This document shows, piece by piece, positions 280 to 22,196 of a DNA stretch of 32,000 nt (positions are counted from its first letter, which is position 1; each line of letters opens with the position of its first letter). A program made the translations under genes and the position numbers. Under the pieces are notes generated by a model. It ran no database searches, was not told the origin of the DNA, and saw nothing but the letters and a program-made list of their open reading frames with translations. Source of the stretch: Sedimentisphaera cyanobacteriorum (lineage in GTDB: Bacteria; Planctomycetota; Phycisphaerae; Sedimentisphaerales; Sedimentisphaeraceae); assembly GCF_001997385.1 (NCBI RefSeq), contig NZ_CP019633.1:330001-362000 (forward strand). The letters run 5' to 3'.

Positions 280-405
280 ACGCAAATCTTCATGCTGAAT
301 GCTTTGCAGAATTTATTATCTATTTACTGAGCCAGCGGTTCGCTGCTTAATAATGCAGCGTCGTACAGCGGTGTAATATGAAGAGTCTATTCGTTGTGTC
401 GGCTT

Positions 406-430
406 AGCGGGCGACTTGCGTCGCTCCGCT
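406..430 (+). repeat. REP-like hairpin element, copy 1 (AGCGG GCGAC TTGC GTCGC T CCGCT)
   Basis: Two nested stems are readable directly. The flanks CTTAGCGGGCG and CCGCTGTAGTA are shared with the copy at 21829..21860. Confidence 0.75.
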
Positions 431-457
431 GTAGTACGGGGGATGTTTAACATTGAG

Positions 458-3591: not shown

Positions 3592-5064
3592 ATGTTTAAA
3601 AATAAAGAATACTGGCTCATAATATCAGCTCTTTTCTTTTTTTCGCTGCCCTGCATTGGCAAAGATAAAAAAGGCCCTGCTCAAATAGAGGTCTTCCCAG
3701 AAAAGAAAATCACCTCAATCAATCCAAACTTTTTCGGGACTTGCCCTTCATTTTTCAACCTAAGCAGCCGGCGAATGGCCGACGGCAAAGTCGCTCGGCA
3801 TCTCAAAAACCTGCCCATCCGCGTACTTCGTTTTCCCGGCGGAACCGATTCGGACAACTATCTCTGGGATGCCCACCGTGTACATGACCCAAACCGCTGG
3901 CCGGCCTACCAAGGCCCTGAATCCATGGATACCGACCGCTTTATCTCCCTTTGCCGCCAGATTAATGCCGAGCCCCTGATGGTTGTGAACACTGAGATCG
4001 CCTTCTTCGAAAACCCTAAGCGCTCTGTAGAATTGGCAGCCGACTGGGTACACTACTGCAACATCGAAAAAAATTACAATATCAAGTATTGGGAGATCGG
4101 AAACGAACCCTATTTCCACACTCGCTTTAACGCCAAAGAATATGCCCGTCTGTTCATCAAGATTGCAAAAGCGATGAAAGCCGTGGACCCAGACATCAAA
4201 ATCGCCGCTGTAGGTAATTGGAACATTGATTACCCGGGCCGCAAGGCCATGATATCGAGCAAAAATCTTGAAAAAGCCCAGCGGCTAGAAGTGAAATACG
4301 AAAATGGAAACTGGGATCTGTATGATAAGATCCATGAGCTGGAGACAGTGGAAAATCCTCCAAAATGGTGGTCAAACGTCTTTGATATTGCTGGCCCGCA
4401 CATAGACATCGTCTCTGTTCACTGGTATTTCAACACCCGCTACCAGCTGCCCAATATGCAAAAAAAACTCAACCGCCTAAAAAATCTTACACGCCAAAAA
4501 ATCCCTTCCAAAGAAATTCCTATAATCATCACCGAATGGAACGTTCATAAGCAGGGCGTCAAAAAAAACCGCCGACTGCTTGCTCTGGCAAAAGCTATTG
4601 GTAAATTCATTGACTCCGATGTGCAGATGGCTTTTTATTGGCCTTTATTCGGCTTTGGTAACCATCATCCAAGATCTCTACTAGATCATCGAGACAATTC
4701 CACCCTGCCCAACTACGAGCTGCTACACCTGTTCTCAAAAAATATGGGAACTCACCGAATCCAATCGACCGCTGCCTCCGAGAATGCCCCATACCATTTC
4801 GCATCAATCGCCAGAAAAAAGCAAATTTCCGTCTTTCTGGTAAATTCCAAAGAAAAGAGCCAAAAAATCAGCCTTGTGTTGCAGGGTTCACCCGCCAAAA
4901 ACTATCAGCTTACAACCCTCATTGCACGCAACACCCCAAAGCTGCACTTTGATACCCGCAAAAGAACAATGACCTTAAAATATTCCAGATCCCCTCTTAC
5001 CTTCGAGCTGCCCCCGCTTTCAATTACTCTCGTGAAAATTCCCTCGCCTGAAGTTGACCCATAA
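3592..5064 (+). CDS. Secreted clan GH-A (beta/alpha)8 glycoside hydrolase; family uncertain (GH39/GH51/GH79-like)
   Basis: The ORF is open from TTG 3577, but ATG 3592 gives a signal peptide (MFKNKEYWLIISALFFFSLPCIG). RFPGGTDSDNYLW, WEIGNEPY (acid/base NEP) and IIITEWN (nucleophile-type TEW) fit clan GH-A. Confidence 0.7.
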   Translation: MFKNKEYWLIISALFFFSLPCIGKDKKGPAQIEVFPEKKITSINPNFFGTCPSFFNLSSRRMADGKVARHLKNLPIRVLRFPGGTDSDNYLWDAHRVHDPNRWPAYQGPESMDTDRFISLCRQINAEPLMVVNTEIAFFENPKRSVELAADWVHYCNIEKNYNIKYWEIGNEPYFHTRFNAKEYARLFIKIAKAMKAVDPDIKIAAVGNWNIDYPGRKAMISSKNLEKAQRLEVKYENGNWDLYDKIHELETVENPPKWWSNVFDIAGPHIDIVSVHWYFNTRYQLPNMQKKLNRLKNLTRQKIPSKEIPIIITEWNVHKQGVKKNRRLLALAKAIGKFIDSDVQMAFYWPLFGFGNHHPRSLLDHRDNSTLPNYELLHLFSKNMGTHRIQSTAASENAPYHFASIARKKQISVFLVNSKEKSQKISLVLQGSPAKNYQLTTLIARNTPKLHFDTRKRTMTLKYSRSPLTFELPPLSITLVKIPSPEVDP

Positions 5065-12294: not shown

Positions 12295-12408
12295 TGATAC
12301 AAGTTTGAAAAAGCTGAAAAAGATTTTGGTAATTTTAAGAATTATGCTATATTGAAACTGTCGTATATTAAATTTTGTATATAAATATTGTTTTGGGAGA
12401 TTTTTGAA

Positions 12409-13158
12409 ATGGGAAAAATAAGAGTTGTTCTGATTATAATTTCTGCATCAGTATTTATTTTCGCCTCATCTGCCTCGGCAGAGGAATATGGCGGAATTGA
12501 GTTTCCAAACGGCGAGCTCAGCTTTGCAGATGAGGTTATAACATACGACCCGCTCTACTCAGGCGGCCCCGCTTCAACATCAAATACAAATCCGCAGGAA
12601 GCTTTGGGAGTCCCTGATGATAACTATTTTGTTAGTTTGGGAAGAGGCGGTTTGATAGAGCTCAAGTTTGTTGACAACTTCCTCATAAACGACGGTACTC
12701 AAGAACCTGATATGCATATCTTTGAGATAGGGCCGGATGTAGAAGATACATTTGTTGCCGTGCGCCCTACGCAGGAGACAGCTGCTCTTCTTGCGGGGGA
12801 AGACTATGACAGCAACGACGACGGCTTTTATGAAATCGGCAAGGTTTCAGGCAGCACTTCATCGATAGATATTGATGCTTTTTTTGCCGGATATTCCGCA
12901 GGAGAGCTCCTGTTTGATGCTGTACAGCTGATTGATGATTATAACGAAGGCAATAACTCAGGTGCAACAGTTGGAGCGGATATTGATGCTGTTGGAGCGA
13001 TTGGTTCGGTGAGAAGCTGCGATTACGCTCTGCAGGGTGATATCAATATGGACTGCAAGGTCGATCTTTCTGATTTGGCAATTATGGCGAAAAACTGGCT
13101 TATCAACTGCAAGCAAGATCCGTCCAACCCAGCTTGCGAGCCCCTTAGTTCGGATTAA
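12409..13158 (+). CDS. Secreted protein of unknown function with a C-terminal dockerin-like Ca-binding repeat
   Basis: ATG 12409 with SD GGGAGA is preferred over TTG 12388. Signal peptide ..IFASSASAEE. C-terminus reads GDINMDCKVDLSDLAIMAKNWL (dockerin / EF-hand-like). Confidence 0.6.
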   Translation: MGKIRVVLIIISASVFIFASSASAEEYGGIEFPNGELSFADEVITYDPLYSGGPASTSNTNPQEALGVPDDNYFVSLGRGGLIELKFVDNFLINDGTQEPDMHIFEIGPDVEDTFVAVRPTQETAALLAGEDYDSNDDGFYEIGKVSGSTSSIDIDAFFAGYSAGELLFDAVQLIDDYNEGNNSGATVGADIDAVGAIGSVRSCDYALQGDINMDCKVDLSDLAIMAKNWLINCKQDPSNPACEPLSSD

Positions 13159-13300
13159 CTGAGAAGGATATTTCTCCAGCTATGATGCGGCAAATGATTT
13201 TTGACAGGTTTCACAGGATTTTATTTGCGTGTAATATGTAATTTTTACATTATTATATCAGCTGCTTTCCTGCAGCATCAATTAGAAATTATATACATTA

Positions 13301-13331: not shown

Positions 13332-13337
13332 CATAAA

Positions 13338-13440
13338 GCTGGCGATCACCTACTTTCGCTTAGACTATCATCGGCCTGAAGGGCTTAGCTTCTGAGTTCG
13401 GAATGGGATCAGGCGTTTCCCCTTCAGTATAGTCACCAGC
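13338..13440 (-). rRNA. rrf: 5S rRNA, unusually compact (about 103 nt)
   Basis: Reverse complement reads GCTGGTGACTATACTGAAGGGGAAACGCCTGATCCCATTCCGAACTCAGAAGCTAAGCCCTTCAGGCCGATGATAGTCTAAGCGAAAGTAGGTGATCGCCAGC. Helix I ends pair, and the CCGAACTCAGAAG and loop-E GATGATAGT/GAAAGTAGG signatures are present. Ends are accurate to a few nt. Confidence 0.9.
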
Positions 13441-13531
13441 AAGATTATTATAAGCTCAAATGAGCGTTATATTCAAAGAAAAAGAGACAGCGGATTAACG
13501 TTTACCTACGTTAAGTCAATCAATGATTGAT

Positions 13532-16340
<2,809 letters not shown>

Positions 16341-16472
16341 ACATCAATCATTAACTGACTAATGTGTTCGCCTTATTGAAAAAAACTAACTTAGGTATAT
16401 GTGTTAATCTACAGTGAAATTGTACCGCTTATTTGTATGGGTACAATTAACCTTTTCGCTATCTCTATTTAA

Positions 16473-16485
16473 TTGTTAAAGAACA
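16473..16485 (-). promoter_or_regulatory. boxA-like antitermination element in the tRNA-Ala/23S spacer (TGTTCTTTAACAA)
   Basis: 12 of 13 positions match the E. coli rrn boxA TGCTCTTTAACAA. Confidence 0.55.
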
Positions 16486-16486
16486 T

Positions 16487-16559
16487 TGGAGCTGGACGGA
16501 TTCGAACCGACGACCTTCTGGATGCAAACCAGATGCTCTCCCAGCTGAGCTACAGCCCC
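16487..16559 (-). tRNA. tRNA-Ala (anticodon UGC)
   Basis: Reverse complement GGGGCTGTAGCTCAGCTGGGAGAGCATCTGGTTTGCATCCAGAAGGTCGTCGGTTCGAATCCGTCCAGCTCCA. Cloverleaf folds, G3:U70 is present, anticodon loop is TTTGCAT. CCA is not encoded. Confidence 0.95.
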
Positions 16560-16569
16560 CTGATAACAG

Positions 16570-16643
16570 TGGGCCCGGAAGGACTCGAACCTTCGACCTC
16601 TCGCTTATCAGGCGAACGCTCTAGCCGGCTGAGCTACGAGCCC
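16570..16643 (-). tRNA. tRNA-Ile (anticodon GAU)
   Basis: Reverse complement GGGCTCGTAGCTCAGCCGGCTAGAGCGTTCGCCTGATAAGCGAGAGGTCGAAGGTTCGAGTCCTTCCGGGCCCA. Anticodon loop is CTGATAA. Confidence 0.95.
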
Positions 16644-16695
16644 ATATCTCTATGAGCCCAAGGGGTTAAACCCAAAAGCTCGATTCTGTCTCCGT

Positions 16696-18671: not shown

Positions 18672-19646
18672 ATGACTGAAACTTTCAAAGAAAGCAATTA
18701 TCTCCCGTTTGAGAAGGAGATAATGGAAATAGACAAACAGCTCCATAAGCTTAAAATAGAGAATGCTGAGAGCTCAGAGATCTACAGCCTTCATAAAAGG
18801 CAGGTAGAGCTGCTGCAGAAAACCTACAGCGAACTCAGCGCTTGGCAGACTGTGCAGGTTTCCCGTCATCCTAACCGTCCTATATTAGGCGATTATCTTA
18901 AGGATATGGTCAAGGAATTCAGCGAGCTGCACGGAGACAGGTGCTTCGGGGATGACAAGGCAATCGTTACAGGATTCGGCCATATCGGCATGGAGCGGGT
19001 ACTGATTGTAGGTCATAAAAAAGGGCGGGACGTTAAAGACAAGGTCGAATGCAATTTCGGCTGCGCCAACCCAGAAGGATACCGAAAAGCGCTGAAGAAT
19101 ATGAAGCTTGCAGCTAAGTTCGGCATTCCCGTTGTAACCCTGATTGACACGCCCGGGGCGTATCCCGGTATCGGCGCAGAGCAAAGGGGGCAGGCGCAGG
19201 CGATAGCTCAAAACCTTATGGAATTAGCACGTCTTCGCACGCCTGTAATATCAATCGTGATTGGAGAAGGCGGAAGCGGAGGAGCTTTGGGCATAGGCGT
19301 TGGAGACAGCTTTGCAATGCTTGAATACTCCTACTATTCGGTTATCTCGCCGGAGGGATGCGCAGCTATCCTCTGGAGAGACGGAAGCAAAGCCGAAGAA
19401 GCCGCAGAAGAGCTCAAGCTAACAGCAGACGATTTGAAAAAGCTCGGAGTGATACAGGATATAATTCCTGAGCCTCTCGGCGGGGCACACAGGGATAAAT
19501 ACACCGCTGTTTACAATGTAGAAAATTTTATACTCAGAAAGCTGAATGAACTGAAATACCAGAACATTGATCAGCTGCTCGAAAAAAGATACAAGAGAAT
19601 AACCTCAATCGGGCAGCCTTCTCAGTTTTCACCTGCAGGCGAATGA
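18672..19646 (+). CDS. accA: Acetyl-CoA carboxylase carboxyltransferase alpha subunit
   Basis: 324 aa. RHPNRP, NFGCANPEGYRKA, IDTPGAYPGIGAEQRGQAQAIA and GEGGSGGALG motifs. Confidence 0.9.
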   Translation: MTETFKESNYLPFEKEIMEIDKQLHKLKIENAESSEIYSLHKRQVELLQKTYSELSAWQTVQVSRHPNRPILGDYLKDMVKEFSELHGDRCFGDDKAIVTGFGHIGMERVLIVGHKKGRDVKDKVECNFGCANPEGYRKALKNMKLAAKFGIPVVTLIDTPGAYPGIGAEQRGQAQAIAQNLMELARLRTPVISIVIGEGGSGGALGIGVGDSFAMLEYSYYSVISPEGCAAILWRDGSKAEEAAEELKLTADDLKKLGVIQDIIPEPLGGAHRDKYTAVYNVENFILRKLNELKYQNIDQLLEKRYKRITSIGQPSQFSPAGE

Positions 19647-20305: not shown

Positions 20306-20332
20306 TTTGTTTTACAACTAAGCCCGCTAAGG
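20306..20332 (-). repeat. 9-bp module (2 units). Reverse complement CCTTAGCGG GCTTAGTTG TAAAACAAA
   Basis: Read directly. Related to the plus-oriented module at 21921. Confidence 0.6.
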
Positions 20333-20374
20333 GGATATTTTATTGGTAAAATTTTTATCCACAGATTTTATGTG

Positions 20375-20409
20375 TTTTTTTACCACCAAGCACACGAAAC
20401 ACACGAAGG
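20375..20409 (-). repeat. 9-bp triplet module. Reverse complement CCTTCGTGT GTTTCGTGT GCTTGGTGG TAAAAAAA
   Basis: Three tandem 9-mers plus an A-rich tail. Confidence 0.8.
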
Positions 20410-20428
20410 GGATATGGTTTCAATTGAT

Positions 20429-20463
20429 TTTATTATCCACAGATGGCACGGATGACACAGATT
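20429..20463 (-). repeat. 9-bp triplet module. Reverse complement AATCTGTGT CATCCGTGC CATCTGTGG ATAATAAA
   Basis: 32 of 35 positions identical to 529..563. Contains TTATCCACA at 20433..20441. A single-unit relative lies at 20351..20369, with TTATCCACA at 20355..20363. Confidence 0.8.
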
Positions 20464-20485
20464 TTATTGGAATTAGTAAAGATAA

Positions 20486-20526
20486 GTGGCGAGCGGCGAG
20501 CGGCGAGTGGCGAGTGGCGAGTGGCA
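20486..20526. repeat. Heptamer microsatellite (GYGGCGA) in about 6 copies
   Basis: GTGGCGA GCGGCGA GCGGCGA GTGGCGA GTGGCGA GTGGCA. Confidence 0.9.
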
Positions 20527-20596
20527 AAATCATAAGCGAAAAATCTTTTCGAAAAGAATGCTTATGTGCCTCTCCCCTGTCTTTGAACAGTAATAA

Positions 20597-21421
20597 TTAG
20601 ACAAATTCCTTCAAACAGCAGTTTTTTCCTTTTGCCCCTTCAGAATTATTTTGAGGGGTGAAAGGCAAAAAACTGCGGACATACTCTACAGGAGTTTTCC
20701 CTCCCAGTGATTCGTGCCCACGCTCATAATTATATTCTATAAGCCAATCTAAAGTTAAATTACGAGCTTCTGATAAATTCTTAAAACTGTACATATCAAG
20801 TATATCCTCTCGATAACTCCGATTGAATCGTTCAATAAAACTGTTTTGCTGAGGCTTGCCTGCTTCTATACGGCGGTGCCTGATTCTGTTTCGGCAGCAG
20901 AACCTGCGAAATTGAAGGCTCCTAAATTCCGGCCCATTATCGCTGCGAATAAAGCGGGGGAAACCCCGATCAGAGCCTATTAATTCAAGGCTACGAATTA
21001 TGCGAAGCGAAGGTAAGCTCGTGTCGATCTCAATATCCAATGCCTCACGGTTAAACTCATCGATAACGTTGAAAGCCCTGAATGGCCGACCATTACTCAA
21101 ACTATCGCTCATAAAATCAATACTCCATATCTCATTAGCTCTCGTAGCTTCTGGCATAGGTTTACGCTCTATTTGCCTTATCAAATTCTTTTTACGGTTG
21201 TTAAGCTGAAATTCATTTTCCTTATAAACACGATAAACCTTTTTGTGATTCCAGCTATATCCCTTGCGGCGGATACTGTCGAATATCTTTGGAAATCCGC
21301 GTCGAGGACGGGAATCTATTACCAGCTCTATCTGTCTTTTTACCTCAGCATCATCGTTTCTTGAAGGAGTATAGTAAAAACTGCCCCGGCTGATGCCTGC
21401 TGCTTTACAAGATGATTGCAC
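20597..21421 (-). CDS. IS3-family transposase OrfB (DDE integrase core), expressed as an OrfAB fusion by -1 frameshift
   Basis: DDE residues in WSIDFM, RSDNGPEF and ERFNRSYREDIL. The frame stays open upstream of the listed start (..KKLLKPAERKDFARQAHSKGLCVQ) as far as the slippery site. Confidence 0.9.
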   Translation of the reverse strand: MQSSCKAAGISRGSFYYTPSRNDDAEVKRQIELVIDSRPRRGFPKIFDSIRRKGYSWNHKKVYRVYKENEFQLNNRKKNLIRQIERKPMPEATRANEIWSIDFMSDSLSNGRPFRAFNVIDEFNREALDIEIDTSLPSLRIIRSLELIGSDRGFPRFIRSDNGPEFRSLQFRRFCCRNRIRHRRIEAGKPQQNSFIERFNRSYREDILDMYSFKNLSEARNLTLDWLIEYNYERGHESLGGKTPVEYVRSFLPFTPQNNSEGAKGKNCCLKEFV

Positions 21422-21474
21422 GCATAAGCCCTTAGAATGTGCCTGCCTGGCAAAATCCTTTCGCTCGGCAGGCT

Positions 21475-21741
21475 TTAGAAGTTTTTTTCTATTAAATCCT
21501 TGAGAACGTTATTCTCTAATGATAAGTCCGCATACATCTTTTTGAGCTTGCCGTTCTCTCGCTCTAACTCGCGTAAACGCCTTATCTCACTGCCGCCAAT
21601 ACCAGAATACTTGCTCTTCCAGTTGTAAAATGTGGCACGGGATATGCCGTATTTCCTGGTCAAATCACTGACCTCTAAACCGGCTTCTGACTCCTTGAGA
21701 ATCGAAAGTATCTGGCTTTCACTAAACCTCGATCTTCGCAT
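21475..21741 (-). CDS. IS3-family transposase OrfA (HTH and leucine zipper)
   Basis: 88 aa. FSESQILSILKESEAG..VSDLTRKYGISRATFYNWKSKY and RLRELERENGKLKKMYADLSLEN. Confidence 0.9.
   Translation of the reverse strand: MRRSRFSESQILSILKESEAGLEVSDLTRKYGISRATFYNWKSKYSGIGGSEIRRLRELERENGKLKKMYADLSLENNVLKDLIEKNF
21481..21487 (-). promoter_or_regulatory. Programmed -1 ribosomal frameshift heptamer A AAA AAC
   Basis: OrfA frame reads GAA AAA AAC TTC TAA. The -1 frame continues AAA AAA CTT CTA AAG into OrfB without a stop. Confidence 0.75.
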
Positions 21742-21831
21742 TTTAAGTTCCTTTCTAAATATTTGAGTTGGTTTATATTATTCAGGAACCGTCTAATTTA
21801 AAGTGTTCAATTCTATGGGAGAGCTACACTT

Positions 21832-21856
21832 AGCGGGCGGCTTGTGCCGCACCGCT
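21832..21856 (+). repeat. REP-like hairpin element, copy 2 (AGCGG GCGGC TTGT GCCGC A CCGCT)
   Basis: Same architecture as 406..430. The inner-stem difference is compensatory (GCGAC/GTCGC against GCGGC/GCCGC). It directly abuts the IS target duplication. Confidence 0.75.
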
Positions 21857-21920
21857 GTAATATGAAAAACTTTCCCCTTATCATTGCCTTGAACTTTAAA
21901 AATTCTGTCTAAAAATATCC

Positions 21921-21957
21921 CCTTAGTGCTTCTTAGCGTTTCTCAGTGGCTGAAATA
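21921..21957 (+). repeat. 9-bp module CCTTAGTGC TTCTTAGCG TTTCTCAGTGG CTGAAATA
   Basis: Read directly. The third unit is 11 nt. Confidence 0.7.
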
Positions 21958-21983
21958 TCTCAGCGCTGCTCGTGGTTTAAAGC
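21958..21983 (+). repeat. 9-bp module (2 units) TCTCAGCGC TGCTCGTGG TTTAAAGC
   Basis: Read directly. The tail TTTAAAGC resembles TTTAAACC at 637-644. Confidence 0.65.
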
Positions 21984-21995
21984 AATTACAAAAAT

Positions 21996-22030
21996 TCTTC
22001 GTGCCCTTCTTGGACTTAGTGGTTTCAGCA
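21996..22030 (+). repeat. 9-bp triplet module TCTTCGTGC CCTTCTTGG ACTTAGTGG TTTCAGCA
   Basis: Three tandem 9-mers plus a tail. The first unit is nearly identical to that of 610..644. Confidence 0.8.
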
Positions 22031-22196
22031 CATGCAGCGTTAAATCCAAGTTGTAAGCGGGGCTTGCGGGCGGAAGCCGTTTTTTTTTGCAGGCTTTTTC
22101 CGCTCATAAGCAGCTGAATCTGAAAAATATTTTTGAAGAGTTGTTGACTAACTTTTCTAAGCCTTAAAATCTCTGCATTCTAAGACGAGGAATTAA

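Follow-up and report, generated by a model that had tools for sequence, protein, structure and literature searches.

The intervening sequences (IVS) of 23S rRNA are selfish elements that measure ~430 nt, carry one open reading frame (ORF) of ~120 aa, and are bounded by terminal inverted repeats of 28 bp; their sporadic distribution suggests horizontal transfer (PMC4990558). Repetitive extragenic palindromic (REP) units are palindromes with a GTAG or CGTC tag at one end (PMC3733652). The directly repeated MraZ boxes share a GTG(G) core and typically form one operator per genome, upstream of mraZ, as reported for M. genitalium (PMC8475190). Here, we analyzed a stretch of 32,000 nucleotides (the window) from the 2.95-Mb chromosome of Sedimentisphaera cyanobacteriorum (Planctomycetota, Phycisphaerae; contig NZ_CP019633.1, positions 330,001 to 362,000), in which two intergenic islands, A and B, contain short modules of tandem units that end in an A/T-rich tail. 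The original prediction had described such modules in island B, the spacer between hpt and a MATE gene, and offered phased protein-binding sites, a structured RNA, or a mobile repeat family as candidate explanations. The mobile repeat family is the best supported of the three; modules of the same types are present across many phyla, where they make up the arms of a small gene cassette. On balance, we favor the reading that the modules are gene-less, partly decayed arms of widespread small selfish cassettes, which measure ~450 bp when complete.

The complete cassette was found in other organisms. It consists of two inverted arms, with their tails pointing outward, around a gene for a ~123-aa GxxExxY protein (PF13366/TIGR04256, PD-(D/E)XK). 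In the left arm, a T-rich tail and CCAC precede three purine-rich cores, either CACGAAG or ACAGGAT, that are spaced with a 9-bp period, and the right arm has three cores (CTTCGTG or ATCCTGT) followed by GTGG or TGTC and an A/T-rich tail. ORFs within 1.5 kb of the arrays were clustered across loci. The largest cross-locus cluster comprised proteins of 123-166 aa, all of which match PF13366 (PDDEXK_3; E 1e-35 to 1e-43) and TIGR04256 ('GxxExxY protein'), with D...ExK invariant in all. Members were sought by hidden Markov model (HMM) in every reading frame of all fetched DNA, and 11/11 sit between a minus arm on the left and a plus arm on the right, the two arms being 376-661 bp apart. The start and stop codons lie directly next to the arms, and either strand may carry the gene. 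Five of five homologues picked by protein similarity only were likewise flanked (loci L307, on a 2.69-Mb contig, L309, L310, L311, and L313), with the layout TTCAC-CACGAAG-NN-CACGAAG-NN-CACGAAG ... gene ... CTTCGTG-NN-CTTCGTG-NN-CTTCGTG-GTGAA.

Three core types flank GxxExxY genes: CTTCGTG, ATCCTGT, and CTTTGCG. The ATCCTGT-flanked proteins form one clade, with 48-64% identity within it and 30-41% to others; most CTTCGTG-flanked proteins form another (59-91%), and the protein flanked by CTTTGCG 8-mers stands apart. The protein clades thus appear to co-vary with core type. The family is large, with at least 7,984 matches at E<=1e-10, mostly on short contigs, and 21,061 representatives at 50% identity; most members lie on contigs of 1-3 kb. 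Transfer of the family across domains, with mixing among bacteria, archaea, and viruses, has been reported (PMC3424549). Searches by sequence in PADLOC, PHROGs, and PDB returned no match to it. No transposase was found between distant arms, which enclose just a PP-loop protein, HipA, a DUF4143 ATPase, and a Zn-ribbon membrane protein, and no transposase family was enriched near the arrays. ORF callers read through the arrays because of their 9-nt period and few stops, as seen in a spurious 85-aa ORF in the window (20343-20600, plus strand) and in NPVNPV tails on GxxExxY proteins (gene ends in L007 and L035). The 'two-domain' GxxExxY predictions of 266-295 aa may arise from the same read-through.

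The arrays themselves are distributed far more widely than the two islands. A scan for ATCCTGTNAATCCTGTNAATCC, with one genome per species, returned at least 120 stretches against ~1 expected by chance, and a metagenome scan for CTTCGTGNNCTTCGTGNNCTTCGTG also returned at least 120. The hosts of the ATCCTGTNAATCCTGTNAATCC arrays belong to at least 15 phyla plus archaea. They include Chloroflexota, Verrucomicrobiota, Kiritimatiellota, Planctomycetota, Lentisphaerota, Chlamydiota, Acidobacteriota, Bacteroidota, Chlorobiaceae, several Desulfobacterota lineages, Gamma- and Betaproteobacteria, Leptospirales, Armatimonadota, Bacillota, Poribacteria, and Latescibacterota, and, among the archaea, Methanoperedens and Methanosarcinales. 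They share an architecture in which three cores of 7 nt recur with a 9-bp period, the last unit ends in GTGG or TGTC and leads into an A/T-rich tail, and an inverted partner lies on the head side. In CTTCGTG arrays, the third core is followed by G in 122/148, at the next position by T in 122/148, and then by [T/G/A]AA; in ATCCTGT arrays it is followed by C (TGTC) in 98/117, then by [T/A]AAA. These independent arrays back the proposal that selection acts on architecture. Within the 834 kb fetched by the first pattern, lag-9 clusters numbered 233, compared with 1-18 at most other lags. Non-seed arrays in this DNA use the restricted cores of the window (CTTCGTG, CTCTGTG, ATCCGTG, ATCTGCG, ATTCGTG, and CTTTGCG), and their period is occasionally 8 or 10 nt. 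An inverted partner occurs on the head side of 55/117 ATCCTGT and 62/148 CTTCGTG arrays and on the tail side of 6 and 2, respectively. Adjacent arrays within 150 bp are arranged (-,+) 97 times versus (+,-) 5 times. Gene-less short-gap pairs and solo arms are far commoner than the complete cassette and appear to behave like its miniature derivatives. Lineage-specific copies have common centers (L013/L043 and L190/L197/L222). Neither the arrays nor an association with GxxExxY genes was found described in Rfam or in the literature that could be searched, by sequence and by concept, which did not include the curated TIGR04256 family notes, and no known repeat family matched there.

Several further arrangements were seen in the same samples. 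In one lineage (L190, L197, L213, and L222, from groundwater and sediment metagenomes), a conserved hairpin GGTTGCGGCTT(C/T)GCCGC lies ~20 nt past the tail of the CTTCGTG arm pairs, and multiple copies of the entire ~130-bp unit occur, with loops that resemble one another. Mirrored arm pairs with a 7-nt or 10-nt period and other cores (GGAGATT, GGGATTA, ACGAATG, and GCAGATNAAC) occur in Chloroflexota, Verrucomicrobiota, and others (L060 5252-5327, L022 5396-5454, L111 3064-3150, and L115 1037-1113); no gene between such arms, and no ORF flanked by heptamer arms, was found in the sample. In L051 (222-1477), minus and plus ATCCTGT arms enclose a gene for a protein of 398 aa that has membrane segments and a zinc ribbon at its N terminus but matches no Pfam family, and the following gene begins 12 nt past the arm tail. 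The ATCCTGT pattern also matches collagen-like G-X-Y coding repeats (Neobacillus, L010, 200-400). In the viral scan it matched 58 contigs (loci L125-L182), giant-virus bins included; some of these matches may be such coding repeats, and the HMM search found no GxxExxY gene in the viral loci.

By architecture and, for part of them, by core type, the modules of the window belong to this family (Table 1). They have 2-4 tandem units with a 7-nt core and an 8-10 bp period, as the family arms do, and the last core is followed by G (GTGG/GCGG) or C (TGTC) and an A/T-rich tail. The CTTCGTG core of GxxExxY flanks is present at 610-644, 20375-20409, and 21996-22030, and the ATCCTGT core at 712-746, 13196-13220, and 21901-21916. 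Relative to the cross-phylum arm consensus, the module at 610-644 has 2 core mismatches and that at 712-746 has 1 mismatch. A head-side inverted partner is present in islands A and B and in Sedimentisphaera salicampi, although the partners in the window differ in core type. All ten modules quoted in the original prediction match their coordinates and sequences exactly; its list lacked the single-unit module at 21901-21916 (plus) and the module at 13196-13220 (minus). The borders at hpt and MATE, the heptamer array, a small palindrome, the REP-like hairpin, and the insertion of an IS3-family element were likewise confirmed in place, as was the recurrence of the module family 20 kb away in island A, where 529-563 is ~85% identical to 20429-20463 (M4).

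Table 1. Coordinates of modules and neighboring features in the window.
Feature	Positions	Strand	Units + tail, or sequence	Remarks
REP-like hairpin, second copy	402-436			
Island A left module	529-563	minus	CATCTGTGC CATCCGTGC TATCTGTGG + ATAATAAA	
Island A module	610-644	plus	CCTTCGTGC CCTTCGAGC CCTTCGCGG + TTTAAACC	Near-consensus CTTCGTG arm
Island A module	712-746	plus	ATCCTGTCA ATCCTGTAA ATCCCGTC + TAAAAAAC	
Two-unit module	13196-13220	minus	AATCCTGTG AAACCTGTC + AAAAATC	Between ORF 12388-13158 and 3' end of 23S-5S operon
accA	18672-19646			Neighbor of island B
msrAB				Neighbor of island B
hpt	end 20206			Left border of island B
M1	20306-20332	minus	CCTTAGCGG GCTTAGTTG + TAAAACAAA	CTTAGYG core, 2 units + tail; in duplicated block 1
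M2	20351-20369	minus	AATCTGTGG + ATAAAAAT	1 unit; perfect TTATCCACA inside; in duplicated block 1
M3	20375-20409	minus	CCTTCGTGT GTTTCGTGT GCTTGGTGG + TAAAAAAA	CTTCGTG-type arm; core type flanking GxxExxY genes elsewhere
M4	20429-20463	minus	AATCTGTGT CATCCGTGC CATCTGTGG + ATAATAAA	
Heptamer array	20485-20535	plus	AGTGGCG/AGCGGCG x5.9, ending GTGGC + AAAATCAT	
IS3-family element	20565-21828	minus		orfA 21741-21475, orfB 21421-20597; TG...CA ends
REP-like hairpin	21829-21862	plus	CTTAGCGGGCGGCTTGTGCCGCACCGCTGTAATA	Target of IS3 element
Single-unit module	21901-21916	plus	AATTCTGTC + TAAAAAT	ATCCTGT-type end
R1	21921-21957	plus	CCTTAGTGC TTCTTAGCG TTTCTCAGTGG + CTGAAATA	
R2	21958-21983	plus	TCTCAGCGC TGCTCGTGG + TTTAAAGC	
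R3	21996-22030	plus	TCTTCGTGC CCTTCTTGG ACTTAGTGG + TTTCAGCA	Degenerate CTTCGTG type
Terminator-like hairpin + T9	22061-22088	plus		Between plus modules and MATE promoter-like TTGACT/TAAAAT
MATE gene	start 22197			Right border of island B

The excess of modules was assessed with a formal pattern, namely at least 2 cores [ACT]T[CT]NG[CT]G spaced 9-10 nt, the last core followed by G and then by at least 6/8 A/T. It has 4 matches in the window, all within the two islands, whereas 100 dinucleotide shuffles, the control that had been suggested for the modules, contained 0.08 matches on average and never more than 1. Lag-9 self-similar clusters (at least 13/18) numbered 8 in the window, compared with 0-2 at lags 4-15 and 0.44 in shuffles, and 5/8 of them are modules of the islands. 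The bare GTGN6GTGG pattern showed no significant excess in the window (3 versus 1.4). These counts speak against slippage, chance, or a cluster of DnaA boxes, unrelated to the arrays elsewhere, as the source of the modules, and so does the fixed unit count, end base, and tail across phyla. It is true that unit number varies, with at least 15 units in the L100 array, and that periods of 7, 8, and 10 also occur. Moreover, three perfect DnaA-box 9-mers (TTATCCACA) lie in modules (533-541, 20355-20363, and 20433-20441), against ~0.24 expected in 32 kb. However, these arise because the ...ATCTGTGG|ATAA junction of one module subtype creates them, and the other module ends do not make one. A DnaA-box cluster or oriC was rejected: the window has no skew switch, dnaA and dnaN are missing among the annotated ORFs, and the neighbors are hpt, accA, and MATE. 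We therefore consider an origin by slippage, chance, or DnaA boxes extremely unlikely.

In island B, the modules are minus on the left of the center and plus on the right, an arrangement that also holds in island A and in the orthologous spacer of S. salicampi. The proposed 'large imperfect mirror' thus stands for module orientation but not as a folded palindrome. The best left/right matches cross and do not nest, and the island is therefore a mirror of orientation only. The left/right pairs combine different core types, and their folds are no stronger than those of shuffled sequences (z -1.7 and -0.5). This one 700-bp spacer contains at least four core types that are unrelated to one another. 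The left half is, by alignment, a tandem duplication of a ~77-bp two-module block (an ATCTGTG-type module, ATATCCCC, and a CTTNGYG-type module), and the four left modules are for this reason not independent of one another. The sequence ATATCCCC precedes R1, and likewise M1 and M3. The heptamer repeat proper spans 20485-20525, with a period of 7 and 5.9 copies, and the array is the plus-oriented partner of M4.

The folding results bear on a role at the RNA level, in which the modules would form long hairpins that act as RNase III sites or mRNA stabilizers, or would be anti-Shine-Dalgarno or Shine-Dalgarno-like repeats that tune translation of the neighbors. Same-type pairs elsewhere do fold strongly (z -6 to -8), and the arms, which read inward are purine-rich (GAAGG, AGGA), abut start codons. 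In both islands, the plus modules have terminators downstream on the plus strand, and the Coxiella IVS, ~430 nt with 28-bp terminal repeats that form an RNase III stem, provides a precedent (PMC4990558). Against these points, the pairs in the window lack such a fold, solo arms are common, and orientation relative to genes is unconstrained. In strict same-type pairs the 7-nt cores are perfect, whereas the 2-nt spacers are complementary in 16/48 positions (33%, chance level), without compensatory pairing. This indicates selection on the phased cores rather than on hairpin pairing. Among Rfam covariance models, only rRNA and tRNA passed gathering scores, and nothing credible was found at E<=5 in either island. 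The structured RNA candidate is thus unsupported at this locus, and we regard an RNA-level element as quite improbable. Intrinsic terminators were also rejected as an identity for the modules, their arrangement (T-run/stem/A-run) being the reverse of a bidirectional terminator. Likenesses to Chi, rut, boxA, parS, the tRNA T-arm, and 16S h24 were dismissed as numerology or as incompatible with archaeal hosts.

Conserved cores with free spacers would also be expected of operator-like arrays for a host DNA-binding protein. Candidates are regulators that form rings or filaments, similar to AbrB/MraZ or ribbon-helix-helix proteins; bound to the three phased cores of each array, such a protein would organize or insulate the hpt-MATE spacer. 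The unit number fixed at three, the 9-10 bp period, and the retention of the island after hpt in two species agree with this explanation, as do the direct repeats with a GTG core of MraZ boxes (AAAGTG[T/G]; PMC8475190). It is harder to reconcile with at least four unrelated core types in one 700-bp spacer, with the same cores in more than 15 phyla and archaea beside unrelated genes, or with the turnover of module number and sequence between sister species. The distance to the next gene boundary is shorter on the tail side (median ~50 nt) than on the head side (~130 nt), for solo arms too. The tails show no orientation preference, with 43 gene starts (sense) versus 60 gene ends (antisense). In addition, apart from the nuclease of the cassette itself, no protein shows a consistent association with the arms. 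A host operator is therefore unlikely. The proposed phased protein-binding sites probably stand as the means of arm recognition, as suggested by the kept cores and free spacers, with the nuclease of the cassette rather than a host regulator as the candidate binder.

The tail positions also raise the possibility of outward-facing promoters, in which GTGG and the T(A/T/G)AAA(T) end would serve as an extended -10 (TGn-TAAAAT-like) firing away from the island center. Many ends do read TGG+TAAAAT, TTAAAT, or GATAAT, and the tail lies 10-55 nt from a start codon in the 43 sense cases. However, it faces the 3' end of a gene in the more numerous 60, some tails are just 7 nt from an ATG, and archaeal hosts use a different promoter grammar. 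A promoter scan of the islands found 2, compared with 3.8 and 2.1 in shuffles. MATE has its own TTGACT/TAAAAT, which was read directly in the sequence and is absent from the scan list. Promoter function of the module ends is accordingly very unlikely.

Turnover and local duplication, as for a mobile family, were observed within Sedimentisphaera. AccA of S. cyanobacteriorum is 94% identical to that of S. salicampi, and the two species have the core of island B in common. In this core, M4, an ATCYGYG module on the minus strand, is opposed by the plus-oriented heptamer array, which terminates in GTGGC-AAAATCAT. S. salicampi retains both the end of the array and the GGCAAAATCATWAGYGAAAAAT behind it, and M4 is the ortholog of the single left module there. 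S. cyanobacteriorum has three extra modules outside M4, derived from the 77-bp duplication. More distant relatives have few or no modules in the syntenic region. Synteny breaks exactly at the island (20206/22197 versus 3704/4247 in L001, the S. salicampi locus): hpt is followed by MATE in S. cyanobacteriorum and by a Glug-domain protein gene in S. salicampi. The latter locus also has CTCCGC 9-mers upstream of ATCCTGT modules (3934-3963) and a 27-nt GC-rich hairpin (TGCCCCGTAGCCAAAGCGGTTCGGGGC) within a unit of an ATCCTGT-type module (4040-4110), as if another very small repeat had inserted into the first.

On the reading of the modules as orphan cassette arms, arms of several core types would have gathered on both sides of an old pair, M4 and the heptamer array, with minus polarity on the left and plus on the right. 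The local 77-bp tandem duplication would have multiplied them, in a spacer that apparently also tolerates a REP-like hairpin and an IS3 element. The predicted nuclease would recognize the phased 7-nt cores, three per arm, and cut at or near the GTGG/TGTC boundary beside the A/T tail. Cutting would drive copying or insertion of the cassette, and gene-less arms could be mobilized in trans or left as relics. The candidate binder of the phased cores would thus be the cassette's own nuclease and not a host regulator, and the modules would probably have no dedicated host function at this locus. More tentatively, we suggest that GxxExxY genes and phased-heptamer inverted arms may constitute an undescribed cross-domain class of mobile elements, in which a ~123-aa PD-(D/E)XK protein moves a ~450-bp cassette without target duplications and also acts in trans on gene-less arm pairs, which would number in the thousands; the islands of Sedimentisphaera could then be graveyards or landing pads of such elements.

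Several observations weigh against this explanation. No GxxExxY gene or remnant was detected in the window, even at E<=10, or in ~100 kb of fetched Sedimentisphaerales DNA. The ATCTGTG/ATCCGTG and CTTAGYG cores and the heptamer array were not seen flanking a GxxExxY gene, the pairs in the window are of mixed core types, and some arms lie beside ordinary genes, RbfA and HipA among them. No target-site duplication was found around pairs or cassettes, and mobility is deduced from distribution only. The co-variation of clade and core is partly confounded by shared descent, since the loci were found through the arrays. Nuclease activity and core binding of GxxExxY proteins are predictions, and the structure model was too poor to use. 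Taken together, the results partly support the original interpretation.

Elements of other kinds lie in or beside the islands. The IS3 element is a later insertion outside the repeat family, flanked by a 4-bp target duplication, CTTA (20561-20564 and 21829-21832). It sits exactly at the 5' edge of the REP-like hairpin, which suggests a REP-targeted insertion. The two REP-like hairpins share the form GCTTAGCGGGCG.CTTG.G.CGC.CCGCTGTA(G/A)TA and end in a CTGTAG/CTGTAA tag. They resemble the GTAG-tagged REP superfamily (PMC3733652). The modules of island A are bracketed by two mirror-oriented GC hairpins at 461-480 and 760-780 (GTCCGCCGAAGGCGGAGAGG, CTCTCCGCCTCCGGCGGAGAG). The minus strand at 13337-16643 carries an operon of tRNA-Ile, tRNA-Ala, 23S, and 5S with no adjacent 16S gene; upstream of tRNA-Ile, this strand has GCTCTTTAACAAA, which resembles boxA, near 16690.

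GxxExxY/PDDEXK_3 is a very large family whose function is listed as unknown, and its association with a specific arrangement of DNA repeats joins what had been a nameless hypothetical protein and a nameless intergenic repeat into one testable unit. The association accounts for intergenic repeats that break metagenome assemblies and for spurious ORFs across arrays, and may account for fused 'two-domain' protein predictions. It also calls for caution, as such modules should not be taken for host regulatory sites or DnaA boxes; an annotation pipeline could mistake the TTATCCACA boxes at module ends for an origin or a DnaA-regulated site.

Among known systems, the 23S rRNA IVS of Coxiella and Leptospira appear, by analogy, to be the closest described architecture. 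Their size (~430-450 nt) and layout equal those of the GxxExxY cassette. In contrast, an IVS occupies helix 45 of the 23S rRNA, from which RNase III excises it at the RNA level, its repeats have no phased 7-nt cores, and its ORF belongs to the S23p family, a four-helix-bundle protein, rather than to the PD-(D/E)XK nucleases; the window has arms without an ORF. Miniature inverted-repeat transposable elements (MITEs), foldback elements, and the REPIN-RAYT system may be regarded as functional analogies. Like the modules, MITE and foldback elements are short, non-coding, multi-copy, and intergenic, with two inverted arms of tandem units around a short variable center; the arms of Drosophila FB foldback elements consist of tandem sub-repeats. 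The cassette arms differ in having neither target duplications nor a DDE transposase, in their linked gene for a 123-aa PD-(D/E)XK protein, and in identical cores across phyla. A MITE was rejected as an identity for the modules: the flanks, T-rich on the left and A-rich on the right, extend the inverted symmetry and contain no direct repeats that would mark a target-site duplication, and no parent transposase was found near the arrays, the ends of the IS3 element in the window being unrelated to the arms. REP and REPIN-RAYT elements are likewise intergenic singles or inverted doublets that lack target duplications and are tied to one nuclease-type gene family, and the two REP-like hairpins share the islands with the modules. 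However, the cassette arms are direct repeats, and RAYT is an HUH/Y1 enzyme that is not located between arms. The modules were accordingly rejected as REP units or bacterial interspersed mosaic elements (BIMEs), as they are not imperfect palindromes with a GTAG/CGTC tag.

PD-(D/E)XK homing enzymes exist, for example, I-Ssp6803I, and the GxxExxY gene resembles a homing endonuclease gene in being a small nuclease-only gene found in unrelated genomes, between host genes and even inside operons (L311, at a GAF-kinase|response-regulator junction, and L313, at a MoeA|MoeA junction). Homing genes, however, normally have no inverted arms of their own and do not leave large numbers of gene-less arm pairs. 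MraZ boxes comprise about three repeats with a ~10-bp period. Their operator differs from the modules in having no inverted partner or A/T tail, MraZ is not known from archaea, and the modules are not beside mraZ, none being noted among the annotated ORFs of the window. The short tandemly repeated repetitive (STRR) sequences of heterocystous cyanobacteria are tandem 7-nt intergenic repeats in long homogeneous arrays. Heptamer arrays also accompany the 9-mers in the window and elsewhere, but STRR sequences are not organized as arms of three units, nor do they have a set end, a tail, or a partner in inverted orientation. The cassettes would belong with small selfish ORF-bearing elements and their miniature derivatives, and the window probably contains their orphan arms only.

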